From positions 32,001 through 96,000 of IMG/VR virus record IMGVR_UViG_3300032038_000011: a stretch of 64,000 bases of DNA; one strand, 5' to 3'. Origin of the DNA: a virus. Taxonomy: Duplodnaviria > Caudoviricetes. Numbering within the stretch: position 1 is the first letter of the stretch; every line of letters starts with the position of its first letter. Below the pieces are notes generated by a model that was not told the DNA's origin, searched no databases, and worked only from the letters and a program-made list of their open reading frames with translations. Shown here in pieces: positions 20,292 through 36,117 of the stretch. The position numbers and the translations under genes were made by a program.

Positions 20292-21467
20292 TTATTCATC
20301 TTCATTAATTCCAATTTCATTTTTACTTACAAGAGTTTGGAGATGCGCGGAAAGACTCTTCGCGCGCATCTCTTTATAAAATTCGTTCGCATTCTGCACC
20401 TTATTATCAAGCCGCGCGAAAAGAAAAGACTTTAGTGGCCCGATATAAGTACAAGCATAACGAGCAAAATCTGCACGAGTAGCAGGAGAATGCGACATTA
20501 TAGTAGAGAAAGCTAAGTCAGCAATATCAATTAAATGTTGCAACTGATGAATAACTTCATCAACAAAAGAACGAAATTCCGGATAATAGGCAATAAAATC
20601 ATCAAGAGAATCATTTTGCCACATTTCCACAACTCGTAGAACAGTTAAAGCTCCATTACCACGCAGCTTATGTAGCCGCAAGTATTCGTCGCCTTTAACC
20701 TTTATACGCAGAACAGAACCATTTTCTTTTTGATTATACGCAGTAACTACATAGCCTTCTTCATCTACGCCCATCTTATGCGCGGCTTCAATACATTCTG
20801 CAAGAGAAGTATAATGAAAATGGCGCGGACGCTTAACCCAAGAAGAATTCCAAAATAAGAAATCTTCGATTCCCATTCCAGTATCTTCTTCCATATTCAT
20901 CATCTTACGCATACCAAGAAAATAAATCGCAGCTTCATTGTAATGAATAACAATACGGTTCATCGGAGATACCATTTCAAACCAGTAGGTATACAAAGGA
21001 GATAGAGTAGAAAGAAATTCACCCCAAGAAACATGCTGCTGGATGATAGACTTAAAGATAGCACCAAAAGTAGTATCGCCGCATTCAGCCTTGAAAGCAT
21101 CAATAGTTCCATTAGTAGAAATATGCCATTCATTCCGGTCATACCATACTTTAATAATAGAACCATCAATCTTTTCCTGTACGTCTACGCCAAGAGTCCA
21201 ATCTATACGATTAGTAGAAGCATAAGATTCTCCATAGTTACCAAATTTATCCATTGCGCGGCAAATACAAAACCATTCACCCGCATCATTTTGACGAAAG
21301 ATAGACCCGCGCGCTTCAATAACTTCAGGTAGGTTAAAATCAGACTGAATCATATTATACTTTAAGATATAATAATCTCCATCCTGCTTGGTTTCAATAA
21401 AATACGGAGCAACAGCTAATTTAGCTTGCCAATCCGAATTTTCATTCATAAACTTAGTCAAATACAT
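20292..21467 (-). CDS. T4 Rnl1-like RNA ligase
   Basis: EARG, KFGN, motif I EKIDGS, EGYVV and IKVK...Y. Confidence 0.85.
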   Translation of the reverse strand: MYLTKFMNENSDWQAKLAVAPYFIETKQDGDYYILKYNMIQSDFNLPEVIEARGSIFRQNDAGEWFCICRAMDKFGNYGESYASTNRIDWTLGVDVQEKIDGSIIKVWYDRNEWHISTNGTIDAFKAECGDTTFGAIFKSIIQQHVSWGEFLSTLSPLYTYWFEMVSPMNRIVIHYNEAAIYFLGMRKMMNMEEDTGMGIEDFLFWNSSWVKRPRHFHYTSLAECIEAAHKMGVDEEGYVVTAYNQKENGSVLRIKVKGDEYLRLHKLRGNGALTVLRVVEMWQNDSLDDFIAYYPEFRSFVDEVIHQLQHLIDIADLAFSTIMSHSPATRADFARYACTYIGPLKSFLFARLDNKVQNANEFYKEMRAKSLSAHLQTLVSKNEIGINEDE

Positions 21468-23392: not shown

Positions 23393-24634
23393 CTACCTTT
23401 TAGAAATTATATGTCCATAATAAGCACCAGTTCCAACTTGTTCGATATTATAATTTTTAGAAATATCTTTTTTAAAAGAAGTCCATTTCTTAGGATAACC
23501 AATTTCTTGAATTAATTGTTCTTTATCTTCCTTTCCTAATTTACGGTTTAAATAATTATCTGGTATAATCCATTGAGTGTTTGCTATATCAGCTCTTACA
23601 GCTTGTTTTCTATTTAAACGTTTTTCATTAGCAGCCAATTGACTGTTATAATTATATTGTACTTGCCAATCTCCACGTTTTCTACCTGGGAATTGAATTT
23701 GTATATCCTTATTCCCACTATGTACAATTACAATTTGTACATTGTCGTCAATTAAATTCCAGCCTGTAGCATATGCTTCTGTGAGTATTATATCATCTAT
23801 GTCATCTGGATACTTATGATTATGTTGCAAGTGATTGACAATGTCTAACTGATTATTTGTCATTGGCTTTAAGGCTCGTCTAGACCATAAACAAACAACT
23901 TTACGTCCTGTATTTTCTTGAATTTCGCGCGCAAATTGTTCACCTTGTTCTATTGTAGGAACAAATATTAAACGTTTGACTTCTGGATTTGCGCGAAGTA
24001 GGACGTGAATATCTGAGTACTCATATTTCTGAAATACTTCATAGGCTATTAGCTGTTCTTGAATTTGAATTTCATTTATATATGATTTTAAACGTGCCCA
24101 TTTTTCTAAGTTATCCGCGGTTGCCGTTAAGCCAAACCACCACACTCCTTTCAGCTCTGCCCAGTGAAGTAAAGTGTCTATGGCTATATAGGAAAATGAT
24201 TCTTGTGAAAGTATAAGACAAATAACTTCTCGTGAGCTTTCTGGATTGCGCTTCCATATATTAGCTTCGTCTATTCTCACATACTTGATTAAATTATGAA
24301 TTTCGTCACAGCATATATAATCAAACATTTCAGCTACCAGTTCTCCACGCTTAACCATTGCGCCAAATTTTTGATAGTTTAATATATAGGGCTTATCCAG
24401 CTTCTCGCCCCACATTTGACATTCTTCGAGGGCTATTTTCTCTTCCTCACCCATTGTTGTGTCAATTAAAATAAGGCATCGCTGCGGCGCGACACCCAAT
24501 TGTTTTGGTATAGTATTTATTGCCGCTGTGGTTTTACCTTGACCAGTTTGCGCGACAATTAGGTTCAAACGCCCGCGCTCGTAATTTGGGCACTCTAAAT
24601 CAAGTGCTTCGGATAAATGTAATCCTTCTCTCAT
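23393..24634 (-). CDS. superfamily 2 helicase-like protein
   Basis: AQTGQGKTT Walker A, CDEIH Walker B, LTAT motif III, Q.PGR.R motif VI. Confidence 0.8.
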   Translation of the reverse strand: MREGLHLSEALDLECPNYERGRLNLIVAQTGQGKTTAAINTIPKQLGVAPQRCLILIDTTMGEEEKIALEECQMWGEKLDKPYILNYQKFGAMVKRGELVAEMFDYICCDEIHNLIKYVRIDEANIWKRNPESSREVICLILSQESFSYIAIDTLLHWAELKGVWWFGLTATADNLEKWARLKSYINEIQIQEQLIAYEVFQKYEYSDIHVLLRANPEVKRLIFVPTIEQGEQFAREIQENTGRKVVCLWSRRALKPMTNNQLDIVNHLQHNHKYPDDIDDIILTEAYATGWNLIDDNVQIVIVHSGNKDIQIQFPGRKRGDWQVQYNYNSQLAANEKRLNRKQAVRADIANTQWIIPDNYLNRKLGKEDKEQLIQEIGYPKKWTSFKKDISKNYNIEQVGTGAYYGHIISKR

Positions 24635-25663: not shown

Positions 25664-26357
25664 TTAGTGGAATTTTAACGGATATTTTGGGATATATTCT
25701 GTTTACAAGTTTTATTTTTTGTTTCTTTGGCGGCTGTGTTTACCTAATTATATATGGTGTTCGGCAATATTTAGAAGAAGAAGATGGGTTCTTTATTTTC
25801 GCAACTGTTATAGGATGTGTTGGCGCTATGATTGTTATAATTATCGTCTTAAAAGCTTTTGGACTATAATTGGAGGATATGTAATATGAAGAAAATTAGT
25901 TATAATGATGCTGCTTATATTTGCCGCTACAAAGAAAAGCATTTTTTTGAGAAGTATTTTTGTAATCATTATATTTGGATGAATAATCCAAATGAAGGAA
26001 TAATAAAAAAAGATATGAAAATTTGGTTTTATATCTTAACATTTATTCCTATCTGTATTCTTCAATTTATTTGTCTCTTGTGGGATGGTGGTATAAAGCA
26101 TTTTGAGATTCCTTCTATTAACATAATGGCTTATAACGTCACCGGACTAACTTCTGATAATGATGATACCACTATGTTTGGTAGGTTTAAGCAAGTATAT
26201 AATAAATAGCGGCAAAACCGCTATTTTTTTAATTATATGTAAATTAGATGTCACGTGTAATCTAATTCACGCAATTTTAACTTGACTATTCTAACTTTAT
26301 ATGTTATACTTATTTCAACAGATGAAGGAAAACATCTCAAACCAGAAAGGCATTAGA

Positions 26358-27008
26358 ATGTTTAAGTATGAGTGGGAAATTCAGGAAGCAAACAAAGAGT
26401 ATCTCGAACAGAGACAAATGTGCTTGGATGCTTATCAATCCATAGCAGAATGGGTTGGAGAAAAAGAAATTCAAACCGAAGTTAAAGGCACTGATGAAAA
26501 TATGTGCCGTTATATAGCCTTTGGTGACGTTGAACCGGAAATAGACGGTTACGAAAAAGGAATACTTTCAATTAATGCTCGTGTAGCTATTAAAAAGTAT
26601 TATACTTTTATCGAAGGTCAAGGTTATATACGGACGAAAGAATCTAATTTCATTGACCGTAGCGATCGCGACAAGTTCGAGAAAAATAATATTGAATATC
26701 CTAAAACTTGCGGTCTTTACATGATAGGGCAGACGTTTGTTAATCCTATCACTAATGAAAAGTTTTATTGGATTAAGGTTGGAGAAGCGCAAAATCTGGC
26801 ACGTCGTAGACATGATTACAATTCTATGACCGCTATGATTTGGGATATTGGATATTATACTAAAGATGATTTGACTGAATCTGAATGTCACGATAAATTG
26901 AAAGATATTGCCCTTCATCGTCATGCGGACGAATGGTTTTCTGTATCGCGCGAAAACTATTTGAAAATTTGCGAACAGGGCTTTGAATGGTTCAAAGAGG
27001 ATGAATAA
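26358..27008 (+). CDS. protein with C-terminal T5orf172/GIY-YIG-like domain
   Basis: GLYMIG...IKVGEAQNLARR...E..CH..L....DEWF; start reassigned after the CCAGAAAGG leader. Confidence 0.65.
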   Translation: MFKYEWEIQEANKEYLEQRQMCLDAYQSIAEWVGEKEIQTEVKGTDENMCRYIAFGDVEPEIDGYEKGILSINARVAIKKYYTFIEGQGYIRTKESNFIDRSDRDKFEKNNIEYPKTCGLYMIGQTFVNPITNEKFYWIKVGEAQNLARRRHDYNSMTAMIWDIGYYTKDDLTESECHDKLKDIALHRHADEWFSVSRENYLKICEQGFEWFKEDE

Positions 27009-27089
27009 TCCTCTTTTTTAATTTAGTGTAAATTAGACTATACGTATTGTTTAATTTACATTCGCTTAAAATTAAGGCGCTTTCGCGCC

Positions 27090-27269
27090 TTAATCTTTCA
27101 TTTCCTGAATATCTTCATCCCTTGTGTAAACAAGAACTTCCGTCCATCCCCAAGTTTTATTGCATTTAGGGCAAGTTCCATAACCAATATCATAATATGC
27201 GTGATTATGGTATTCGGTATCTACTACATCCTCAAAAGTAACTGTTTCGCCGCAATTAGGACATTTCAA
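27090..27269 (-). CDS. small zinc-ribbon protein (not in ORF track)
   Basis: TTG start, MKCPNCGETV...GTCPKCNKTW...EMKD*, 59 aa; paralog of the adjacent gene. Confidence 0.6.
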   Translation of the reverse strand: MKCPNCGETVTFEDVVDTEYHNHAYYDIGYGTCPKCNKTWGWTEVLVYTRDEDIQEMKD

Positions 27270-27270
27270 A

Positions 27271-27459
27271 TTAATCGACTTCCTTTATATCAGTTTCGTC
27301 ACTATAGATATAATTGACTTCATTCTGATAGGTACGTCCGCAAGTGGGACAGTGCCAAGTGTTGAATTGCGTCATAGTGGATGAACCACCAAAGTCCTGA
27401 TAGGTTTCAATCTCAACAAGCTCAAGTTCAGTATCGCAATGAGGGCAAATGTAATCCAT
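27271..27459 (-). CDS. small zinc-ribbon protein
   Basis: CPHC...CPTC. Confidence 0.65.
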   Translation of the reverse strand: MDYICPHCDTELELVEIETYQDFGGSSTMTQFNTWHCPTCGRTYQNEVNYIYSDETDIKEVD

Positions 27460-28036
27460 AATTATATATATTCCTTTCTTAAATTTTAGCTATTCTATAA
27501 TCGGGGCAATCTTGTTTATGTAATTTACATAAACGGTTATATGCTTCTTCATAAGAAGGCCAAGCCCATTTATAATTATCATCCGCTGGCGTCCAAAAAC
27601 TTCCACACATATCAACCCAAAGGATTTGAATTTGATACATAAAATTGCTCCCCTTTCGTTTTCTTGAATATATTATAGCATGAGATGGAATGAAAGTCAA
27701 GTTAATTTTCTGATATTTTCTATTTTTTCTTCAATCTGATATGAAACATATAGTTCTTTTTCAGAACGTATTTTCTTAATATATGCTTCTGCCTCGTCTT
27801 TGGTGTCAAAAGTTGCTATCAAAGTGTAAGTATCGCGGAAACCTTGACCGCCATAAACAACCTTATACACATGGTAATACATATCGGCTATAATTCTCAT
27901 TGACTTTCTCCTTTGCTTTTCTTGAATATAGTATATCATAGAAATACTTTGAAGTCAAGTTAATTATTAATTAATTAAAATGTACGTACCATTTAATTTA
28001 CATTTGCTTAAAAAGAAAAGGGCTTACGCCCTTTTC

Positions 28037-28438
28037 TTAACAGTGAGGACAATGAAGGCAATCATCACGGCATCCATAACAATAATCATCATCATCATAG
28101 TCATCATCATAGTCATCATCATCGTCGTCCTCGTCGTCCCAATCGTCGTCCTCGTCCTCGTCGTCATCCCAATAATCCTCGTCCTCGTCATAATCGACGG
28201 TCAGAAGGTCAGGATTCAGAGGACAACCATTGAGATTAACCATATAGCCCTCGTCATTTGCCGCGTCAATCGCGGAAATGATGTCGGTCAGAAGGCGGTC
28301 AGAATCAGCCTTGCGGGAATTGCGAATCGCATCATCCACCGCGTCACGCAGGGCAACCAGGGTCTTGATAGGCATATCAGTCAGAACCACGCCGCCGTTG
28401 ATGGAAGTGCCGCACTTGATGTTAGAGTTCATATTCAT
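28037..28438 (-). CDS. protein with very acidic C-terminal tract and Cys-rich end
   Basis: About 35-residue D/E-rich run followed by CYGCRDDCLHCPHC. Confidence 0.7.
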   Translation of the reverse strand: MNMNSNIKCGTSINGGVVLTDMPIKTLVALRDAVDDAIRNSRKADSDRLLTDIISAIDAANDEGYMVNLNGCPLNPDLLTVDYDEDEDYWDDDEDEDDDWDDEDDDDDDYDDDYDDDDYCYGCRDDCLHCPHC

Positions 28439-28826
28439 ATTGAATCCTTTCTCACTTGGGTTTGTTAAGTGTTTTCCTTCACTTGATGTTATTATTATAT
28501 CAGATGGAGTGGAGTTTGTCAAGTTAAGAGTTTGTTACTGTCTGCTTACCCACGCGGTAAGCATATCTACCGCGCAGCCAAAACCAACTGGAATTGCCCA
28601 TACCGCCCAATGATGGGGAACTTTACCCATCGTCCAAAGAATGAACACAATCGCACCAGTTACCTTAAACAAATTGATGTTTCTTGCTTGCATCTTAAAT
28701 TTCCTTTGGTTTGAAGTGTTGTCCTTCACTTGATGTATATATTATAGCATGGGTTTGGCTATTTGTCAAATTAAGAGTTGGTAAATTAAAATTGACGTAT
28801 GCTTTAATTAAATAGCACTTAACGTG

Positions 28827-29255
28827 CTACTTAATAAAGGTATCAATATCTGTTACTATTCGCGCGGAAACATAATGTTTCTTACAAGTTAAGGTTTCAT
28901 AGAAAGCCATATCTTTTTCATAGTTCTTATCAAAATCTAATATGGCATTCATGTTAGCTTGTATGGGATTAATATTGTATCTAAACTCCAAACGATTACG
29001 CCATGCTTTTGCGTTCTGTTCGGGAATGAGAAGTTCAAATTCAATATTCTGCTCCATAAGTCGGTTAATAACTGCTTGATGCGCGGAAATAAAGACATTG
29101 TATCCCGCAACACTAAGGTTATGAGCTAAAGCAACATAAAGATATTCCCATTTGTCTTTCTTGACAAAGTTAGAAGAATCTAAATCTATGGTAGTGTCAG
29201 GATTGTTACGACAATAGGTAGACTTTCCACAACCTTGATAGCCACAATAAATCAT
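28827..29255 (-). CDS. small P-loop kinase-like protein
   Basis: GYQGCGKST Walker A followed by IDLDSS. Confidence 0.7.
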   Translation of the reverse strand: MIYCGYQGCGKSTYCRNNPDTTIDLDSSNFVKKDKWEYLYVALAHNLSVAGYNVFISAHQAVINRLMEQNIEFELLIPEQNAKAWRNRLEFRYNINPIQANMNAILDFDKNYEKDMAFYETLTCKKHYVSARIVTDIDTFIK

Positions 29256-29373
29256 ACAATATCGCCCCTTTCATTATCTATTATACACATTTAGGGGCAA
29301 ATTGTCAAGTTAAACTTATGTAAATTAGAATCTACGTTAGGTGTAATTTACATAAACTTAAAAAGAAGGAGGA

Positions 29374-29733
29374 TTACTCCTCCTCCTTCTCCTTGGCTTC
29401 CTTTTCGGCCTTGGCCTTGGCCTTTTCGCGCTTGGCCTTGTCCTTAGCGGCCTTTTCGGCACGCTCGGCGGCCTTCGCGGCCTTCTTAGCCTGCTTGTCC
29501 TCATAGTCCGCAATCTCAGCGGCCATGAGTTCGGCGGCGGTCATGTCCTCGCGTTCCTCGGCCACGATGACGCCGATGCGGGCGTAGCGTTCCACGCCGT
29601 TGGAATCGGTCACAAGGCAACCGTACTGGCGGTCGTTAATCTTGTGAATACCTTCGACCTCGGAAATGTGCAGGGTGTTGAAGATAACGGTGCGGATGTT
29701 GGAATCGACAAGAGCCTTAGAAATCTTCGCCAT
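29374..29733 (-). CDS. protein with Lys/Ala-rich tail (paralog family)
   Basis: KKAAKAAERAEKAAKDKAK tail; similar to 34020-34322 and 34840-35295. Confidence 0.7.
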   Translation of the reverse strand: MAKISKALVDSNIRTVIFNTLHISEVEGIHKINDRQYGCLVTDSNGVERYARIGVIVAEEREDMTAAELMAAEIADYEDKQAKKAAKAAERAEKAAKDKAKREKAKAKAEKEAKEKEEE

Positions 29734-29826
29734 AGTAGGAAAATCCTTTCTGGTTTTTTAGTGTTTTCCTTCACTTGATGTATTCATTATAGCACGTTGT
29801 GTGCCTAATGTCAAGTTAAAAGTTTG

Positions 29827-29903
29827 TTACAAGAGCGTGGGTCTTACTGCGAATTTCGCGTAGCGCTCCGCGGTTATCGGCTTACTGCCCTCGCCCTTGG
29901 AAC
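29827..29903 (-). ncRNA. candidate ~75-nt structured RNA
   Basis: Own promoter and no ORF; closing stem CAAGGGCG/CGCTCTTG plus GGG/CCC; CAGTAAG occurs twice. Confidence 0.45.
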
Positions 29904-30018
29904 AATTATATTATAGCAGAAAATCCCACATAAGTCAAGTTAAAACATAGTAAATTACATTTGACGTTCTATCTAATTTACACTTGCTTAACAAGAAAAG
30001 ACCCTTGCGGGTCTTAAC

Positions 30019-31038
30019 TTAATATTTACAATCCAGTCCGGCATATTCGGCAAGCCGCCTCATGCGATTGACTAATCCTACGCAATAGGTAGACAAGGCT
30101 TTTTCCTGCTCTGCTGCTTCATCCTGTTTTGCGTCAACATAGCAAGCCATAGCATAATAAACGGTTTCACATTCGCGCTTGTCTGCCTTTTTCCTTCTCA
30201 TACAAAATTCATCAGTAGCGCCCAAGTCACGAAAAGGGAAAAACTTAATGCCTGGCGTTATGGCGTGGCGCTGTGCTATCTTGTGAAGTATGTAAGATTC
30301 AATGATAGCATCGTCAAGCGCGGTATGGCTTTCTTCAAAGTCGTATACATCGCAAAGGTATCTAAAAGTCGATTCGGCGGAAGTTTTGAAAAATGTTCCC
30401 GAATTAGTCAAAAGGCCATTTTCCAAACACTTGTTTTTATAGTTCACATTGTTTAACAAATGCGTTGTGGCAAGTCCCCACAAATCAAACATGGAATAAG
30501 TGTTGCCACGAAAACGAAAAATTTCCGCTTCAAAGTCGGGGTTACGCTGGTTTTTTTCGCCTTCCGCAATTCGCGCCGCACTTGCGCGTTGTATCTGTTC
30601 CCATTCATTATAGTTAGGACTATACAATTCCCGAATGTAAAGTTCAGTAAAAGGAATAGCCTTTTTGAAGTCGAACATTGCGTTAAATGCGCCGATTCCA
30701 TCCACCGAGGACATATCAGAAATGAAAATTTCCATAACTTCATCCCACGGTTTTATGCTGGTTTCGCCCTCTTTAAGCATATTAAGGTAAATCGGGCGTT
30801 TTTCCGCATAATACGCGGTATTGAAAATGGCAGGAACGGCGAAAGTTTCCGCAATCAGAAATTGCTTGCGCTCATAGATATTTCCTGCGCGGTCACAGAT
30901 AGTCCAGCCAATGTCATAAATCAAAGGTTTGGCAATGGCTATGCGCTTTTTGCGCTCAGGGTCGCCATTTGTGATTTCATCCGCAAAGGGCAAAGTTGCC
31001 GTTTCCGTATCGACTACCATAAATTTCAATTTCTTCAT
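30019..31038 (-). CDS. DEDDh 3'-5' exonuclease
   Basis: VVDTETA, AFNAMFD and HTALDDAIIE motifs. Confidence 0.85.
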   Translation of the reverse strand: MKKLKFMVVDTETATLPFADEITNGDPERKKRIAIAKPLIYDIGWTICDRAGNIYERKQFLIAETFAVPAIFNTAYYAEKRPIYLNMLKEGETSIKPWDEVMEIFISDMSSVDGIGAFNAMFDFKKAIPFTELYIRELYSPNYNEWEQIQRASAARIAEGEKNQRNPDFEAEIFRFRGNTYSMFDLWGLATTHLLNNVNYKNKCLENGLLTNSGTFFKTSAESTFRYLCDVYDFEESHTALDDAIIESYILHKIAQRHAITPGIKFFPFRDLGATDEFCMRRKKADKRECETVYYAMACYVDAKQDEAAEQEKALSTYCVGLVNRMRRLAEYAGLDCKY

Positions 31039-31189
31039 AAAAAGCCCTTTCTGGTTTGTCGTTGTTTTCCTTCAACTGTAAGTATATTATAGCACACCCA
31101 CCGTAGAATTGCAAGTTAAACTTTTGTAAATTAGACCTAACGTTCTATCTAATTTACATTAGCTTAAAAAAGAAATTAACCCTTGCGGG

Positions 31190-32236
31190 TTAATTCTTTT
31201 CGCGGATTGAATTAAGATGCTGCTGGTATTCCTTTTTGAAATTCTTTGCCGCTTCGTCCTTCGGCGTTGAATTACCAAAGGCAAGATACTGATAAATAAG
31301 ACCGTTGTTAGTAACTTCACAAGTTATATAAGACTTATCGGGGTCGTTTTTAAGGCGAACGGTTACAACGTGGGTATGGCCTTTATAAACCTTTTCCATA
31401 TACAGACGTTCAACGCAATTCCTTTGCGCTTCGCCCTCTTTGTGGAAATCCTCTTTTGTCAACAAGGGCTTGACAACAAAAGTATCATTTTCATAATAAA
31501 GCCATTCTTTATCATTATACTTTGCCAGTTCTTCGTTATAATGCGCATCCCTATATTCTTTTTCAAGATATTTAAGAACGGCATATTTAGTCAAAAAGTT
31601 CTTTTCGACTTCTACTTTACCAAACATTTTCATAGAAGTCTTGTAATACCAAGCTAACATATCCCTAATATAGCTTGCCTGATTATAACCTTCATACATT
31701 GCTTCCATGTGTTCACTAATAACACGATTCAAAGCAGTTTTAATATAATCAACAGGGAAATCAGCATTAAGCAAGGAAGAAAAAACTTCTTTCGCCCAAT
31801 CAGGCAAAGTATTAACGTACTGTTCATACTGTATCATGATAAGATACTTGTTAATTCTATAAGCATCATAATAATCATTGCAGTTTTCCTTAACATAATC
31901 TACAACCTTTTTAGTAAGGTTAAGTTTATTGTTAAGAGTTTCGGGTTCACTCGGAAACAGGCCCAAGCTCAAAAGCTGCTCAAAACGCGCGCCCTTTTCT
32001 TCATTATAAGCGGGGTCGTAAGAATGGGTAAACCTATTGCGATACCAATAAATGGCATAGCCCAACAAACCTTCCCTACGCCAAGTGGGCAAATTGTTAA
32101 AGGTAAAACACTTGGGAACACCCCTGACAGGCTTGCCAGACTTGCCGATAAACTGCCCGGTGGTAATATCCCACGCGCCGACCTTCAAAGAGCAATCATA
32201 AGCTACGATAAAATTACGTTCCTTAACAAAATTCAT
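31190..32236 (-). CDS. PcfJ-like domain protein
   Basis: C-terminal EGEAQRNCV..Y...YITCEV...Q....N motif. Confidence 0.7.
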   Translation of the reverse strand: MNFVKERNFIVAYDCSLKVGAWDITTGQFIGKSGKPVRGVPKCFTFNNLPTWRREGLLGYAIYWYRNRFTHSYDPAYNEEKGARFEQLLSLGLFPSEPETLNNKLNLTKKVVDYVKENCNDYYDAYRINKYLIMIQYEQYVNTLPDWAKEVFSSLLNADFPVDYIKTALNRVISEHMEAMYEGYNQASYIRDMLAWYYKTSMKMFGKVEVEKNFLTKYAVLKYLEKEYRDAHYNEELAKYNDKEWLYYENDTFVVKPLLTKEDFHKEGEAQRNCVERLYMEKVYKGHTHVVTVRLKNDPDKSYITCEVTNNGLIYQYLAFGNSTPKDEAAKNFKKEYQQHLNSIREKN

Positions 32237-32404
32237 TCTTAATCCCTTTCTGGTTTGTGTTGTTTTCCTTCAACTTTGTGAGTATATTATACACCCGATA
32301 TGGCTATTTGTCAATGCTTTTTTGTGTTAAGTATATATAAATTACACTATACGTTTAGTCTAATTAACATTCGCTAAAAGAAAAGCGCCCCGAAGGGCGC
32401 TGGA

Positions 32405-32749
32405 TTAGGTGCGGCGGGAGTAGGTGTTATTGCCGCCATTATCGGGGCGATGAACCTCAACCTCGTCCTGCCAGAGGTTAAGCATACCATACCGCATCTT
32501 GCTTGCGGTGAAGGTGTCGGGCATATCGGCACTGACGGCATCCCAAAGGTCCTTCACGGTCATCGGCTTGTCCCACGCGGCGCAAGCCATCAGGGCATCG
32601 TGCGCGGCGTTATACAGTTCAGTATTAGCCCGCGACTTTGCGGTGGTACGCTCCCACTCGGCGTTGACTTCATCACGAAGCACAGACAGGTCAACAGTGT
32701 TGTCGCCGTTCAGGTAGTTCTTCATCATCTCAAGAGTAGACTTCTTCAT
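32405..32749 (-). CDS. putative winged-helix protein
   Basis: KPMTVKDLW...TASKMRY pattern; own promoter and terminator. Confidence 0.5.
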   Translation of the reverse strand: MKKSTLEMMKNYLNGDNTVDLSVLRDEVNAEWERTTAKSRANTELYNAAHDALMACAAWDKPMTVKDLWDAVSADMPDTFTASKMRYGMLNLWQDEVEVHRPDNGGNNTYSRRT

Positions 32750-32841
32750 AGGGCATTAATTCCTTTCTCGTTTGTAGGGTGTCGTTCCCTTTGATGTATT
32801 TATTATAGCACTGATTGGCTATAATGTTAAGTTAAGAGTTC

Positions 32842-32959
32842 GTTAAAGGGGTTCGTGCGTTCCTCAAGGTTTAACCTTGCTTCTCTGTTTAACAGAGTGA
32901 CATACTATTGCGACTTTCAACCGCCGCCCCACGGGTCTGTGGCTCAGAACCCCTTTAAC
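32842..32959 (-). ncRNA. candidate 118-nt multibranched RNA
   Basis: Perfect 13-bp closing stem GTTAAAGGGGTTC/GAACCCCTTTAAC, four internal hairpins, directly downstream of TTGACA-N17-TATAAT. Confidence 0.6.
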
Positions 32960-33070
32960 ATCTTTATTATACCACGATTTCCAAACTTTGTCAAGTTAAG
33001 ATTTCGTGACGCCGTTTTTACGTGGGCTTTCTTATTAAAGTAGCACACCACTACAGGCAGCGGCCCTGTC

Positions 33071-33113
33071 TGGTGAGGGTGGCGGGAATCGAACCCGCGG
33101 TACCTTCGCCCTC
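33071..33113 (-). ncRNA. 43-nt tRNA minihelix (acceptor stem, T arm and CCA; no D or anticodon arm)
   Basis: GAGGGCG-AAGGTACC-GCGGG-TTCGATT-CCCGC-CACCCTC-A-CCA; promoter at 33125-33153. Confidence 0.6.
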
Positions 33114-33187
33114 TTGACAGTAACAGTATATCAAAAATTGAACTAAAAGTCAAGTAATTTTTATGTAAACTAAAATGTACGTGCGAT

Positions 33188-33610
33188 TTAATTAACAAAT
33201 AATTTATCAAATGAATAATCCTTAAAATATTTAGAATTATTATTTTGATTATTTAACGGTTCTCTAATTCTTAATCTAATTTGCTTTTTATCTCCAATAT
33301 CTTCTATTGGAACAATTGCGATTAAATCATAAGTTTGATTTACAAAAACGAAATAATCTACCTCTCCAATATAAGTAGATAAGTTTTTATTTGTGGTATG
33401 ATTTGTAGAACTACGAGTATAACAACAAATAGCACCATTTTGTTCTTCATTACAAGTTTTAACTTGTATTCTATTGAATTTACCATTAAATTCTGCTATC
33501 ATATCATAGCGTTCATTATCTCCCCAAGGAATACAAACAGGAATATTATATTTTTGAAATTCATATAGTGCTTTTGCTTCCGATAATTGGCCTTTTGTTT
33601 TAGTATTCAT
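33188..33610 (-). CDS. PD-(D/E)XK endonuclease, I-Ssp6803I-like (group I intron-associated family)
   Basis: G..SE.KA......IPWGDNERYDMI.......RIQVKT and Y...VDYF motifs. Confidence 0.8.
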   Translation of the reverse strand: MNTKTKGQLSEAKALYEFQKYNIPVCIPWGDNERYDMIAEFNGKFNRIQVKTCNEEQNGAICCYTRSSTNHTTNKNLSTYIGEVDYFVFVNQTYDLIAIVPIEDIGDKKQIRLRIREPLNNQNNNSKYFKDYSFDKLFVN

Positions 33611-33693
33611 ATTATCACTCCTATGATAAATAAAATTAAGGGCTGGCGTAGGAGCGCCTTATCTCATTAGTCGCGAACTAATGCTACCCCTGA

Positions 33694-33768
33694 TGGTGGG
33701 GATAGTGGGAGTCGGACCCACCGTACCGAAATTAAAAGTTTCGTGCCATACCGCTTGGCTATATCCCC
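33694..33768 (-). tRNA. tRNA-Lys(UUU), atypical
   Basis: Full 75-nt cloverleaf GGGGATA/TATCCCC, anticodon loop CTTTTAA, encoded CCA; T-loop TCCGACT is non-canonical. Confidence 0.8.
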
Positions 33769-34019
33769 ATACCACTTGGCTACACCCTCATAAGTTTTGG
33801 GAGTTCCTTTCCTCTCCCTCAACTGTAATTATTATAGCAGAATTAGAATGAAATGTCAAGTATTGGGATAGTTAAGATTTGGAAAATTAGAAATTACGGG
33901 ATTTCTAATTAAAATGAAATTAACAGAAAAAAGTATTGACAAGGAAATGAAATTCTGCTATAATAATAACTGTCAAGAGGACAAGGAAAAGTCCTAAAAA
34001 CCAGAAAGGATTTCAACTT

Positions 34020-34322
34020 ATGGCTATGACTGCTGCTGAAATGAAGGCTACTGCTCGTCAGGCAACTATCGCGGCTATTATGCCGTCCCTCCAGGAAAAC
34101 AACGCAATTAAGTTTGCGGACGGTTCCTTCGCTATCCTTCAGAATGTTGAAGGTCAGGATATTTGGACGGAAGTAACCGTCAAGTCCAAGGCTTACAAGG
34201 ATACCAAGGTATCCAAGGCGTTCAATCCGCGCGAAGCGGCGCAGGCGTGGGAAGCCGAACGTCAGATTAAGGCAGATAATAAGGCTGCCAAAGAAGCCGA
34301 AAAGGCGGCGAAGAAGGCGTAA
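34020..34322 (+). CDS. Lys/Ala-tail paralog, inverted relative to its neighbours
   Basis: 100-aa ORF with own promoter and leader, between sites 33881 and 34343. Confidence 0.75.
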   Translation: MAMTAAEMKATARQATIAAIMPSLQENNAIKFADGSFAILQNVEGQDIWTEVTVKSKAYKDTKVSKAFNPREAAQAWEAERQIKADNKAAKEAEKAAKKA

Positions 34323-34839
34323 GCCTTCTTCTTTTAATTTATTGTAAATTAGGTTGAACGTATAATATAATTTACATATAGTTAAAATAATAAGGATTAA
34401 ATCCTTATTATCATTCTTTCTTTTTCTTTACTATAACGATAAGATTTTACTTCTTTATATTTAAGTTTGTCAGGAATTTCACTAACTAAACCAACGTATA
34501 AAGCGCGACTGGTGTTAGGGTTCCAAATAATTACACGATTAACAATAACTTTGGTTTGTGCTGCGCGGATTAATCCTGCTACAATCATTATTTATCTCCT
34601 TTCATAGCTTCACGACAAATCTGCTTCCCTTCTTTACGTTCTTGTTTTTTATTTTTCTTCTTTGCGGGCATCACAGAAGGGCGATAGCCACACCAAGTTT
34701 CACGGTTCTGATTTTTCTTTTCCATTATATTCCCTCTCTTTCTATAAATAGTATATACTATTTTCTTCAATAAGTCAAGTTAATTATTTGTAATATAGAT
34801 TAAACGTACAGTGTAATTAACATAGAAATAAAGTGACGG

Positions 34840-35295
34840 TTAAACCGTCACTTCGTGGGGCAGGAACTGATTGTTATCGTCTTTTTCTTCTTCTTCAGGG
34901 TCAGGTGCGTGAATCATAGCCTGAAGCCCTTCGGTGTTGAGTTTCTTAATCGTCTTTTTCGCGGCGCGCTTGCGCTCCTTTTCTGCTGCTTCGCGCTCGG
35001 CCTTTTCCTTGCGCTTTGCTGCTTTGTCAGCCTTATCGGCCTTGACAAGTTCCCATTCATCATGGGCTGCGTAACCGTCATAGGCATCATAACCGCCGTC
35101 ACCATTGCGGGAGCCGCGCGGAATAGATACCTTAATCAGCGCAAACTTTTCATTGCCTTCGGCATCGACAACAGGCATAGCGAGTTCGCTTGCGCTAACA
35201 TCCATCACATCAGCGTCGTAGTGTTCAGACAGAGCGGCGGTCAGAACGGCAAGAACATCATTGCGAATCGCGGTTTCCAGTGCTGCTTGTGTCAT
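34840..35295 (-). CDS. Lys/Ala-tail paralog
   Basis: 151-aa ORF with the conserved leader. Confidence 0.75.
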   Translation of the reverse strand: MTQAALETAIRNDVLAVLTAALSEHYDADVMDVSASELAMPVVDAEGNEKFALIKVSIPRGSRNGDGGYDAYDGYAAHDEWELVKADKADKAAKRKEKAEREAAEKERKRAAKKTIKKLNTEGLQAMIHAPDPEEEEKDDNNQFLPHEVTV

Positions 35296-35558
35296 AGCAT
35301 TTCCTTTCTGGTTTAGTGTTGTCCTTCACTTTGTAGGTATATTATAGCAGATTTGAGAGGAGAAGTCAAGTTAAATAATTGTTACGATAATTGCGGAAAC
35401 AATCAAAATGTCAACGGCAAGAACCAAATAGATAAACATTTTGTTTCTCCTTTCATTTTCTATAAATATTATAGCATAAATTCTGTTGCTTGTCAAGTAA
35501 ATTTTTTGTTAAATACATACGACGTATAATTTAATTAACTTGAAATTAAAAAAGGCGG

Positions 35559-35999
35559 TTATCCCGTCTTTATCATTTGTGAAAGAATTTCAAAAATCTT
35601 TTCCGGTTCATAAGCTCCATTTCCCCACGCTGTGCGGTTTCTTTCTTCATCATCAAAAAGAATCCCGCCGCCTGTTACTGTGAGTTTATTTGTGCCATAA
35701 CGTTCAATTTTAATATAATCAAAATTAACGGAAGGCAAATGTTTTGCTAACCAGTAAAATTTTGCGATACTGATTTTAACCAAAAAATCGTCCGAGCCGT
35801 GTTTAGAACCCCATGAAATAATACCGATTTCATGGCCTTGGGTTTGTAGTTTGTTAAGATAACGAGCAAGCAAACTCATGTTAATAAGAGGTTTTGCCGC
35901 ATTATAAGGCGTGGTATCTTCATTTTGAAGATAATTCAACCAACCTTCAACGCCGTAAAAATCCGCAATAGTTCCATCCATATCCAACCAAATCTTCAT
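35559..35999 (-). CDS. HAD-superfamily 5'(3')-nucleotidase-like protein
   Basis: DMDGTIADF motif I and ILFDD motif IV. Confidence 0.8.
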   Translation of the reverse strand: MKIWLDMDGTIADFYGVEGWLNYLQNEDTTPYNAAKPLINMSLLARYLNKLQTQGHEIGIISWGSKHGSDDFLVKISIAKFYWLAKHLPSVNFDYIKIERYGTNKLTVTGGGILFDDEERNRTAWGNGAYEPEKIFEILSQMIKTG

Positions 36000-36117
36000 A
36001 ACACAAAACCCCTCTCATTTGATGTATTAAGTATAACATATATGGATTAAGAAGTCAAGTTAAATGTTTGTTATTTAGATTGGACGTTTAACCTAATTTA
36101 CATATAATTAAAGTGGA

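Follow-up and report, generated by a model that had tools for sequence, protein, structure and literature searches.

Positions 26.3-35.3 kb of the DNA analysed here (the window, 64,000 nucleotides corresponding to bases 32001-96000 of the 136,935-bp IMG/VR virus record IMGVR_UViG_3300032038_000011, with a G+C content of 34%) are occupied by an array of short cassettes, each made up of a promoter, a gene and a terminator. The transcripts of nine of these cassettes, strongly promoted early ones of what is a rumen phage, open with the same folded-leader motif, located in 9 of 9 cases on the coding strand of the downstream gene, which raises the question of what kind of element such a leader is and what it does for the genes that it precedes. 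As described below, the fold is widespread among phages and among elements integrated in Clostridia of the gut, it matches nothing in Rfam, and the leaders probably set how well the messages are translated.

Structure of the folded leader

From 5' to 3', the motif comprises the first strand of a 4-5 bp stem, a loop, the complementary strand, an A-rich linker ending in AAACC, the Shine-Dalgarno (SD) sequence AGAAAGG and the ATG. In the window, the loop reads AAGGAAAA in most copies, AAGGACAA in two and AACGACA in one, and the copy with the AACGACA loop is also the single one whose linker ends in AAACG instead of AAACC. The ATG follows the SD at a distance of 7-12 bases, and terminators lie downstream of the motif-bearing genes. 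A covariance model (R1), whose seed contained 33 copies from other phages and none from the window, was run with filters off and matched exactly the nine leaders listed in Table 1 (24-54 bits, E values of 3e-15 to 2e-5), the next-best match in the window scoring 9 bits with an E value of about 1. No copies beyond the same nine were found by R1 in the whole record. The original prediction had placed nine leaders at these positions and on these strands, and both the placements and the stem sequences that it quoted were correct. All nine are preceded by promoters of the type TTGACA-N17-TATAAT, which match 10-12 of the 12 consensus positions, and the motif begins 9-13 nt downstream of the -10 box; with transcription assumed to start about 7 nt past that box, the hairpin would be transcribed and would lie 2-6 nt from the 5' end.

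Copies were then collected more widely, for most loci with an exact pattern in which the loop is followed, after 6-20 nt, by AAACCAGAAAGG, and were filtered for a minimum stem length of 3 bp, a loop beginning with AA[G/C]G, a tail A[A/C]AC[C/G], an SD and a start codon. After removal of one spurious match, 372 unique copies were obtained from rumen and gut viral contigs and from metagenome-assembled genomes (MAGs) of Clostridia.

The hairpin had originally been proposed to covary, and a check of this proposal in an enlarged alignment of 109 distinct sequences gave covariation well above that of shuffles. The four core pairs were paired in 93-100% of these sequences, with at least three pair types at three of the four, and the covariation score was 0.726 versus 0.198 in shuffles, falling to 0.08 or less when the 3' partner was slid by 1-3 columns. 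Double-change cells numbered 153 versus 51 in shuffles, a count reached by none of 500 shuffles; since the copies are related by descent, these shuffle counts are not to be read as probabilities. The stem may be extended by a fifth, outer pair (A-U in 38 of the 109 sequences), and 41 different 4-bp stem forms were observed across the 372 copies, with pairing kept. Lone hairpins are weak (-2.2 to -4.3 kcal/mol), and single-sequence folding gave no significant z-scores, the stems being too short for thermodynamic detection. The case for the hairpin is therefore a comparative and not an energetic one, and a stem this weak on its own would need tertiary contacts or a partner such as the ribosome.

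The second element of the fold is a pairing between the loop and the tail. When copies were tabulated by anchoring only on NN-AGAAAGG, loops with GG always occurred with CC before the SD, and the loops AACGACA or AACGAAAA always with CG. The filtered set of 372 copies contained 365 GG/CC and seven CG/CG copies and none that was truly discordant. These seven copies look independent, with at least three different stems (AGGG, GCGG and AAGAG) and different downstream genes, and in one orthologous cassette, with a common promoter and the stem GGG/CCC, three loci carry GG/CC and three CG/CG, the copy at 32762 among the latter. The joint change of GG to CG in the loop and of CC to CG in the tail, noted originally in the 32762 copy, thus recurs in other phages. 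Because the R1 alignment put the variant loops into insert columns, pairs were counted with a second model that had a variant in its seed, two AACGACA copies being set aside. In the resulting alignment, the pair loop-3:tail-2 was G-C in 117 sequences, C-G in three and unpaired in none, and the pair loop-4:tail-1 was G-C in 120 sequences. Antiparallel Watson-Crick pairing would lead one to expect just such a joint change, G to C in the loop with C to G in the tail, which supports the pseudoknot.

The spacing within the leader follows the same geometry. Loop bases 3-4 (GG) face the CC located 9-10 nt past the loop, and stem length plus linker length amounts to 9 or 10 nt in 328 of the 372 copies, so that the distance from loop to CC is fixed irrespective of stem length; the linker itself, originally described as A-rich, ends in CAAA or AAAA in 308 copies. 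Collectively, these data describe a predicted H-type mini-pseudoknot composed of stem 1 (S1, 4-5 bp), loop 1 (L1, AA), stem 2 (S2, two pairs), loop 2 (L2, 3-4 nt, mostly A) and loop 3 (L3, 4-6 nt ending in AAA). Given that just one of the two S2 pairs varies and that independent switches are few (we estimate two to four), this fold is well supported but not proven.

Junction with the Shine-Dalgarno sequence, genes served and distribution

The relation of the motif to the SD is strict. In 358 of the 372 copies, the 7-8 bases directly after CC are complementary (Watson-Crick or G-U) to UCCUUUCU, placing the SD in register 0, and the same register was found in 127 of the 141 copies in which it was not forced by the retrieval pattern; in 323 copies, the start codon stands 7-10 nt past the GG. 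A link to the SD of a gene subset was therefore rightly proposed, and the order CC-AGAAAGG, given as the usual one, holds in most copies, except that the copy at 28726 has CC-AAAGGA and the one at 28479 has six bases between CC and the SD. An alternative hairpin in the 28479 copy, whose insert repeats the 5' stem strand, was dropped, as it is not conserved in relatives. The non-motif cassette leaders of the phage carry GGAG- or GAGG-type SDs.

Of 373 copies, 323 have a sigma-70-type promoter immediately upstream, with the stem 9-13 nt past the -10 box. The remaining copies, about 50, have no adjacent promoter; some of them follow a stop codon within an operon and some stand behind another 5' hairpin. 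The intercistronic copies, together with an SD relation that is stricter than the promoter relation, argue that the motif is a ribosome-binding-site module and not merely a 5' cap.

Ordinary, non-motif cassette leaders between 25007 and 42413 show ..CATCAAATGAAGGGAG.. after the -10 box, and the first ~17 transcribed bases of the motif leaders, ..CATCAAGTGAAGGA.., are nearly identical to them. From this resemblance, the 5' strand and the loop of the hairpin may have descended from an ordinary leader with its SD, a second SD having been added downstream.

Table 1. The nine folded leaders of the window with their parts, promoters and downstream genes.
Copy	Position	Strand	R1 score (bits)	Stem	Loop	Linker	Tail	SD	Promoter	Gene	Gene product and remarks
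1	26317..26350	+	54.2	AGATG/CATCT	AAGGAAAA	CAAA	CC	AGAAAGG	26282-26310	26358-27005	216 aa, weak T5orf172 match
2	28445..28484	-	24 (hairpin part only, 28463-28484(-))	AAGTG/CACTT	AAGGAAAA	AACAAA	CC, 6-nt insert	AGAAAGGA (SD part read from the sequence)	28522-28494	28040-28438	133 aa, very acidic tail
3	28703..28734	-	29.3	AAGTG/CACTT	AAGGACAA	CAAA	CC	AAAGGA (shortened)	28769-28741	28538-28693	52 aa, hydrophobic
4	29745..29779	-	44	AGTG/CACT	AAGGAAAA	AAAAAA	CC	AGAAAGGA	29814-29786	29377-29733	119 aa, GC3 (G+C content at third codon positions) 0.77
5	31046..31080	-	40.6	GTTG/CAAC	AAGGAAAA	GACAAA	CC	AGAAAGG	31114-31086	30022-31038	339 aa, phrog_20187
6	32245..32278	-	54.4	GTTG/CAAC	AAGGAAAA	ACAAA	CC	AGAAAGG	32314-32286	31193-32236	348 aa, PcfJ-like
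7 (variant class)	32762..32794	-	24.4	AGGG/CCCT	AACGACA	ACAAA	CG	AGAAAGG	32830-32802	32408-32749	114 aa
8	33975..34009	+	42.2	AGGAC/GTCCT	AAGGAAAA	AAAAA	CC	AGAAAGG	33936-33964	34020-34319	100 aa
9	35303..35334	-	33.4	AGTG/CACT	AAGGACAA	AAA	CC	AGAAAGG	35369-35341	34843-35295	151 aa

The genes headed by the motif are mostly orphans, the recognisable ones encoding a PcfJ-like protein, a protein with a weak T5orf172 match and a member of phrog_20187. Their GC3 was 0.49 versus 0.30 in the other cassette genes (Mann-Whitney p=0.002), with eight genes scored as motif-bearing, one of them a false call. The product of gene 28040-28438(-) has an isoelectric point of 4.1, a C-terminal third consisting nearly entirely of Asp and Glu with interspersed Tyr and Trp, and a tip rich in Cys; its likeness to DNA-mimic anti-restriction proteins is limited to composition.

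In wider scans, the exact pattern matched IMG/VR contigs in at least 117 stretches and prokaryote genome contigs in at least 120. Among the prokaryote matches listed, all those with a real stem came from MAGs of rumen, faecal or gut origin with the labels Clostridia, Acutalibacteraceae, Christensenellales, Oscillospiraceae or Ruminococcus, the remaining matches being long-gap chance occurrences. R1 detected 295 copies at E<0.001 within 860 kb of viral loci. The large terminase of the phage is 33-38% identical to terminases of Geobacillus, Enterococcus, Bacillus and Lactococcus phages, a likeness that points to a member of Bacillota as the host.

In four motif-bearing Clostridia MAGs (2.9-4.3 Mb), R1 gave 3-5 copies each among 150 candidates scored per genome, nearly all in one locus per genome (one of the five copies of genome G003 is on a second contig). 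Host housekeeping genes thus seem not to use the motif, which appears confined to mobile elements. Arrays of motif copies behind an integrase, found in two MAG contigs, indicate that it also resides in integrated elements. In these contigs (L166:3624-7537 and L131:867-3587, both from Clostridia MAGs), a tyrosine integrase, which in L166 adjoins a host GAPDH gene, is followed by paralogous genes of ~125-180 aa without Pfam match; each gene is headed by the same pseudoknot leader, some copies being intercistronic, and each array looks like an integrated element with a repeated gene family.

No Rfam 15 family matched the leaders at gathering scores or with lax E-value filters, only a tRNA-Lys passing in the window, and none matched a single 76-nt leader with lax filters. 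Megablast and blastn searches of the region and of one leader against GenBank phages returned chance or promoter-like matches only; the best of them, Dulem virus 31, was rejected as merely a promoter look-alike.

Proposed action and alternative explanations

Our preferred reading, which we hold at about even confidence, is that the motif would be a cis-acting translation and stability module for early genes of mobile elements. Such a module would act through the RNA, chiefly by influencing translation initiation and in second place by protecting the 5' end, and the genes served would be strongly transcribed, mostly monocistronic and early ones, needed fast and in quantity. The 16S rRNA of Bacillus subtilis ends in ...CCUCCUUUCU-3', and the SD after CC (AGAAAGGA) would pair with the eight 3'-terminal bases of 16S rRNA in Firmicutes. 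With the GG:CC helix stacked against the terminus of the SD:anti-SD duplex, the folded leader could be held at the 30S platform, and this docking would strengthen ribosome capture and shield the short leader from 5'-end-dependent decay. The A-rich third loop could lie along the stem, with the 3' strand of the pseudoknot abutting the SD in fixed register, and no small-molecule ligand is assumed. Stacking on the SD:anti-SD duplex would explain why the register and the loop-to-CC distance are fixed, why the stem is weak and needs a partner, and why the motif is used on promptly expressed genes. These genes may be under shared translational control, as suggested by the original prediction, and a constitutive enhancer or stabiliser would fit the data at least as well as a regulated switch.

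Several points weigh against such a module. A helix of just two pairs is marginal, and the junction between CC and the SD is broken in about 4% of the copies, including those at 28479 and 28726 in the window. The retrieval pattern fixed the loop and the tail for most loci, so that the conservation of these bases is overstated there; the unforced subset (n=141) was for its part counted separately. A 16S rRNA search in five host MAGs found none, and the stacking idea rests on the Bacillus subtilis 3' end. The near-invariant unpaired adenines would suit a protein partner equally. In addition, a fold simply aiding ribosomes might be expected on host genes, where it is apparently unused.

A more daring version of the stacking idea, which we put forward tentatively and consider doubtful, would make the two loop guanines a third strand prolonging the 16S rRNA at its 3' end, with GG:CC stacking locking the leader on the 30S subunit. 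The motif would then be a structural translation enhancer of a new kind, in which GG:CC and CG:CG serve as interchangeable 'keys', used by mobile elements of Clostridia to out-compete host mRNAs in the first minutes of infection. No description of the loop sequence or of stacking-type enhancers was found in the literature, a search that did not cover the supplement of a 10,000-candidate viral RNA catalogue (PMC10690425).

The main rival of a cis-acting module, rather unlikely in our judgement, is that the motif serves as the operator of an RNA-binding protein acting in trans (a host protein such as CsrA, or an element-encoded repressor or activator), which would recognise the pseudoknot and the adjacent SD and co-regulate all carriers, possibly as a RegA-like temporal shut-off of early genes. 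Near-invariant unpaired bases in loop and linker, a weak fold that needs a partner, and the restriction of the motif to mobile elements, with its absence from host genes, would all suit an operator. However, no CsrA, S1, cold-shock or S21 domain and no candidate binder was found in the 137-kb record, a search of which with PF02599 (CsrA) gave no match, and one and the same factor would have to be available to elements as different as large lytic-looking phages and small integrase-linked arrays. As regards CsrA, raised by the original prediction as a possible ligand of the loop, dual sites with a similar layout are known, in which one GGA lies in a hairpin loop and another in the SD. The main class of the present motif likewise has a loop GGA and an SD GGA ~22 nt apart, but the loop GGA is absent from the seven CG-class copies, which compensate in the tail, and in the supported fold the loop GG is paired. 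This pattern fits pairing rather than GGA read-out and weakens the reading of the loop as a CsrA site, as well as its reading as a decoy SD, considered below.

The presence of nine copies per genome before unrelated early genes recalls the RegA regulon of T4, in which ~30 mRNAs share a common feature in their initiation regions, so that coordinated control is possible (PMC3014915). RegA sites, in contrast, are unstructured, A+U-rich and overlap the AUG (PMC3014915), whereas the present motif is folded and lies upstream of the SD; no RegA-like protein was found in the phage. The gene 32 operator of T4, T2 and RB69 is also a small leader pseudoknot located 5' of the ribosome-binding site, which governs the translation of a stable message; it lies 67 nt upstream, nucleates cooperative binding of gp32 over an A+U-rich tract and controls one autoregulated gene (PMC3014915). 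Unlike this operator, the present fold abuts the SD and precedes nine unrelated genes, none of them recognisable as encoding a protein that binds single-stranded DNA.

It is improbable, in our view, that the motif does no more than guard the 5' terminus against 5'-end-dependent RNases, as a generic hairpin or as a STAB-SD-type decoy SD, with incidental loop-tail pairing. The 5' stabilisers and STAB-SD elements of Bacillus mRNAs and of the early RNA of phage SP82 are likewise found in Firmicutes and combine a purine-rich, SD-like sequence with a hairpin near the 5' end of a short leader. For 323 of 373 copies, the predicted 5' end is ~2-6 nt away from the stem, the tRNA and small-RNA transcripts of the phage also open with purine-rich-loop hairpins, the loop AAGGA resembles an SD, and the first ~17 transcribed bases resemble those of ordinary leaders, whose GAAGGGAG is the real SD. 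Nevertheless, about 50 copies stand between cistrons or behind other 5' hairpins, the stems are thermodynamically weak, and both the loop-to-CC distance and the CC-SD register are fixed. Moreover, complementarity to the anti-SD, which extends over 5 nt in the loop AAGGA, is abolished in the CG-class loop AACGA, and yet this class is retained with a compensating tail change. The present motif therefore differs from STAB-SD elements and 5' stabilisers in a loop that pairs in cis with the tail, a variant class without SD likeness, copies away from 5' ends and weak hairpins.

We regard as highly improbable a preQ1-I-like translational riboswitch, in which binding of a small ligand would make the two-pair helix more stable and change how accessible the SD is. 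The likeness of architecture, pointed out by the original prediction, is real: preQ1-I (RF00522) is an H-type pseudoknot of ~34 nt with a first helix (P1) of ~5 bp, a 2-nt L1, a very short second helix (P2), an L2 of several nt, an A-rich L3 able to lie in the minor groove of P1, and the SD at its 3' edge (PMC11625349). A fold that is weak without a partner would also suit a switch. Membership of the family, in contrast, did not hold. No Rfam riboswitch family scored, even with lax filters, and the preQ1 families (RF00522) at E<=10 gave no match over 26000-36000 or, with lax filters, on a single 76-nt leader. In preQ1-I, a specificity base, (U/A)C, immediately precedes the 3' strand of P1 (PMC11625349), whereas the present motif has no specificity cytosine at this place, 286 of the 372 loops being AAGGAAAA, which ends in AA (loops of the ..ACA type end in CA). 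The P2 of the present motif has two pairs and no SD bases, the SD itself lying outside the helix. Furthermore, the downstream genes are unrelated orphans of mobile elements rather than a metabolic set, queuosine genes are absent, and nine copies per genome, with hundreds across mobile elements, are unlike any known riboswitch.

A DNA-level element, either a recombination linker for cassette shuffling of the PeSL kind or the operator of a DNA-binding protein, located at +1 to +30, would suit an array of promoter-gene-terminator cassettes with orphan genes such as the hyperplastic regions of RB49 and phi1 (PMC2839356), but is scarcely credible, as the conserved blocks span just 8 and ~12 nt and enclose freely varying, compensating stem bases (41 stem types), and the motif keeps to the sense strand and to the SD throughout, even in promoterless copies within operons. 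The PeSL cassettes of T4-type phages share the arrays of orphan genes, the strong sigma-70 promoter, the SD and stem-loops, but their stem-loop is a terminator and a DNA recombination linker located upstream of the promoter (PMC2839356), whereas the hairpin described here folds as RNA within the leader and covaries. It lies downstream of the -10 box with a 4-5 bp stem and no U tract, and separate terminators follow the genes.

Neighbouring elements and biological meaning

Other elements were observed in the cassette region. A tRNA transcript, with its promoter at 33859-33831, covers tRNA-Lys (33694-33768) and tRNA-like pieces and opens at 33800-33831(-) with a 5' hairpin, GGGAG / AGGAAAGGAA / CTCCC, that has a purine-rich loop; it carries neither the AAACC tail nor an SD and received no model score. 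Three promoters outside the window (genome positions 7757, 7312 and 1368, all on the minus strand) also start with hairpins, two of them before tRNAs. Two short non-coding stretches, 32842-32960(-) and 29840-29905(-), are preceded by consensus promoters (32994-32966 and 29938-29910, respectively), have long closing stems and lack a ribosome-binding site and an Rfam match; they are probably phage small RNAs. At 33071-33113(-), a promoter-driven acceptor/T-arm minihelix matched the Rfam tmRNA model in part (26 bits, E 1.5e-7, short of the gathering score) and was not called by ARAGORN. Near-palindromic sites of ~34 bp (..TAAATTAGA..ACGT..TCTAATTTA..) lie between cassettes, beside terminators, at 26230-26270, 27020-27060, 29320-29355, 31120-31160 and other places. 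The cassette array is flanked by genes for a T4-type RNA ligase 1 domain protein, 20295-21467(-), and a ResIII helicase-like protein, 23396-24634(-).

Leader pseudoknots that control translation are known from single genes, such as T4 gene 32 and the ribosomal-protein operators, and from riboswitches. The present motif, of ~35 nt and with strong covariation, occurs in hundreds of copies as a portable front end for many unrelated early genes, in uncultured phages and in elements integrated in Clostridia of rumen and gut. Since the covariance model finds it cleanly, it provides a practical marker of early-gene cassettes in metagenomic phage contigs. If the motif raises or gates translation, it would explain the fast expression of takeover and anti-defence genes and would constitute a compact, transferable expression part for Firmicutes.

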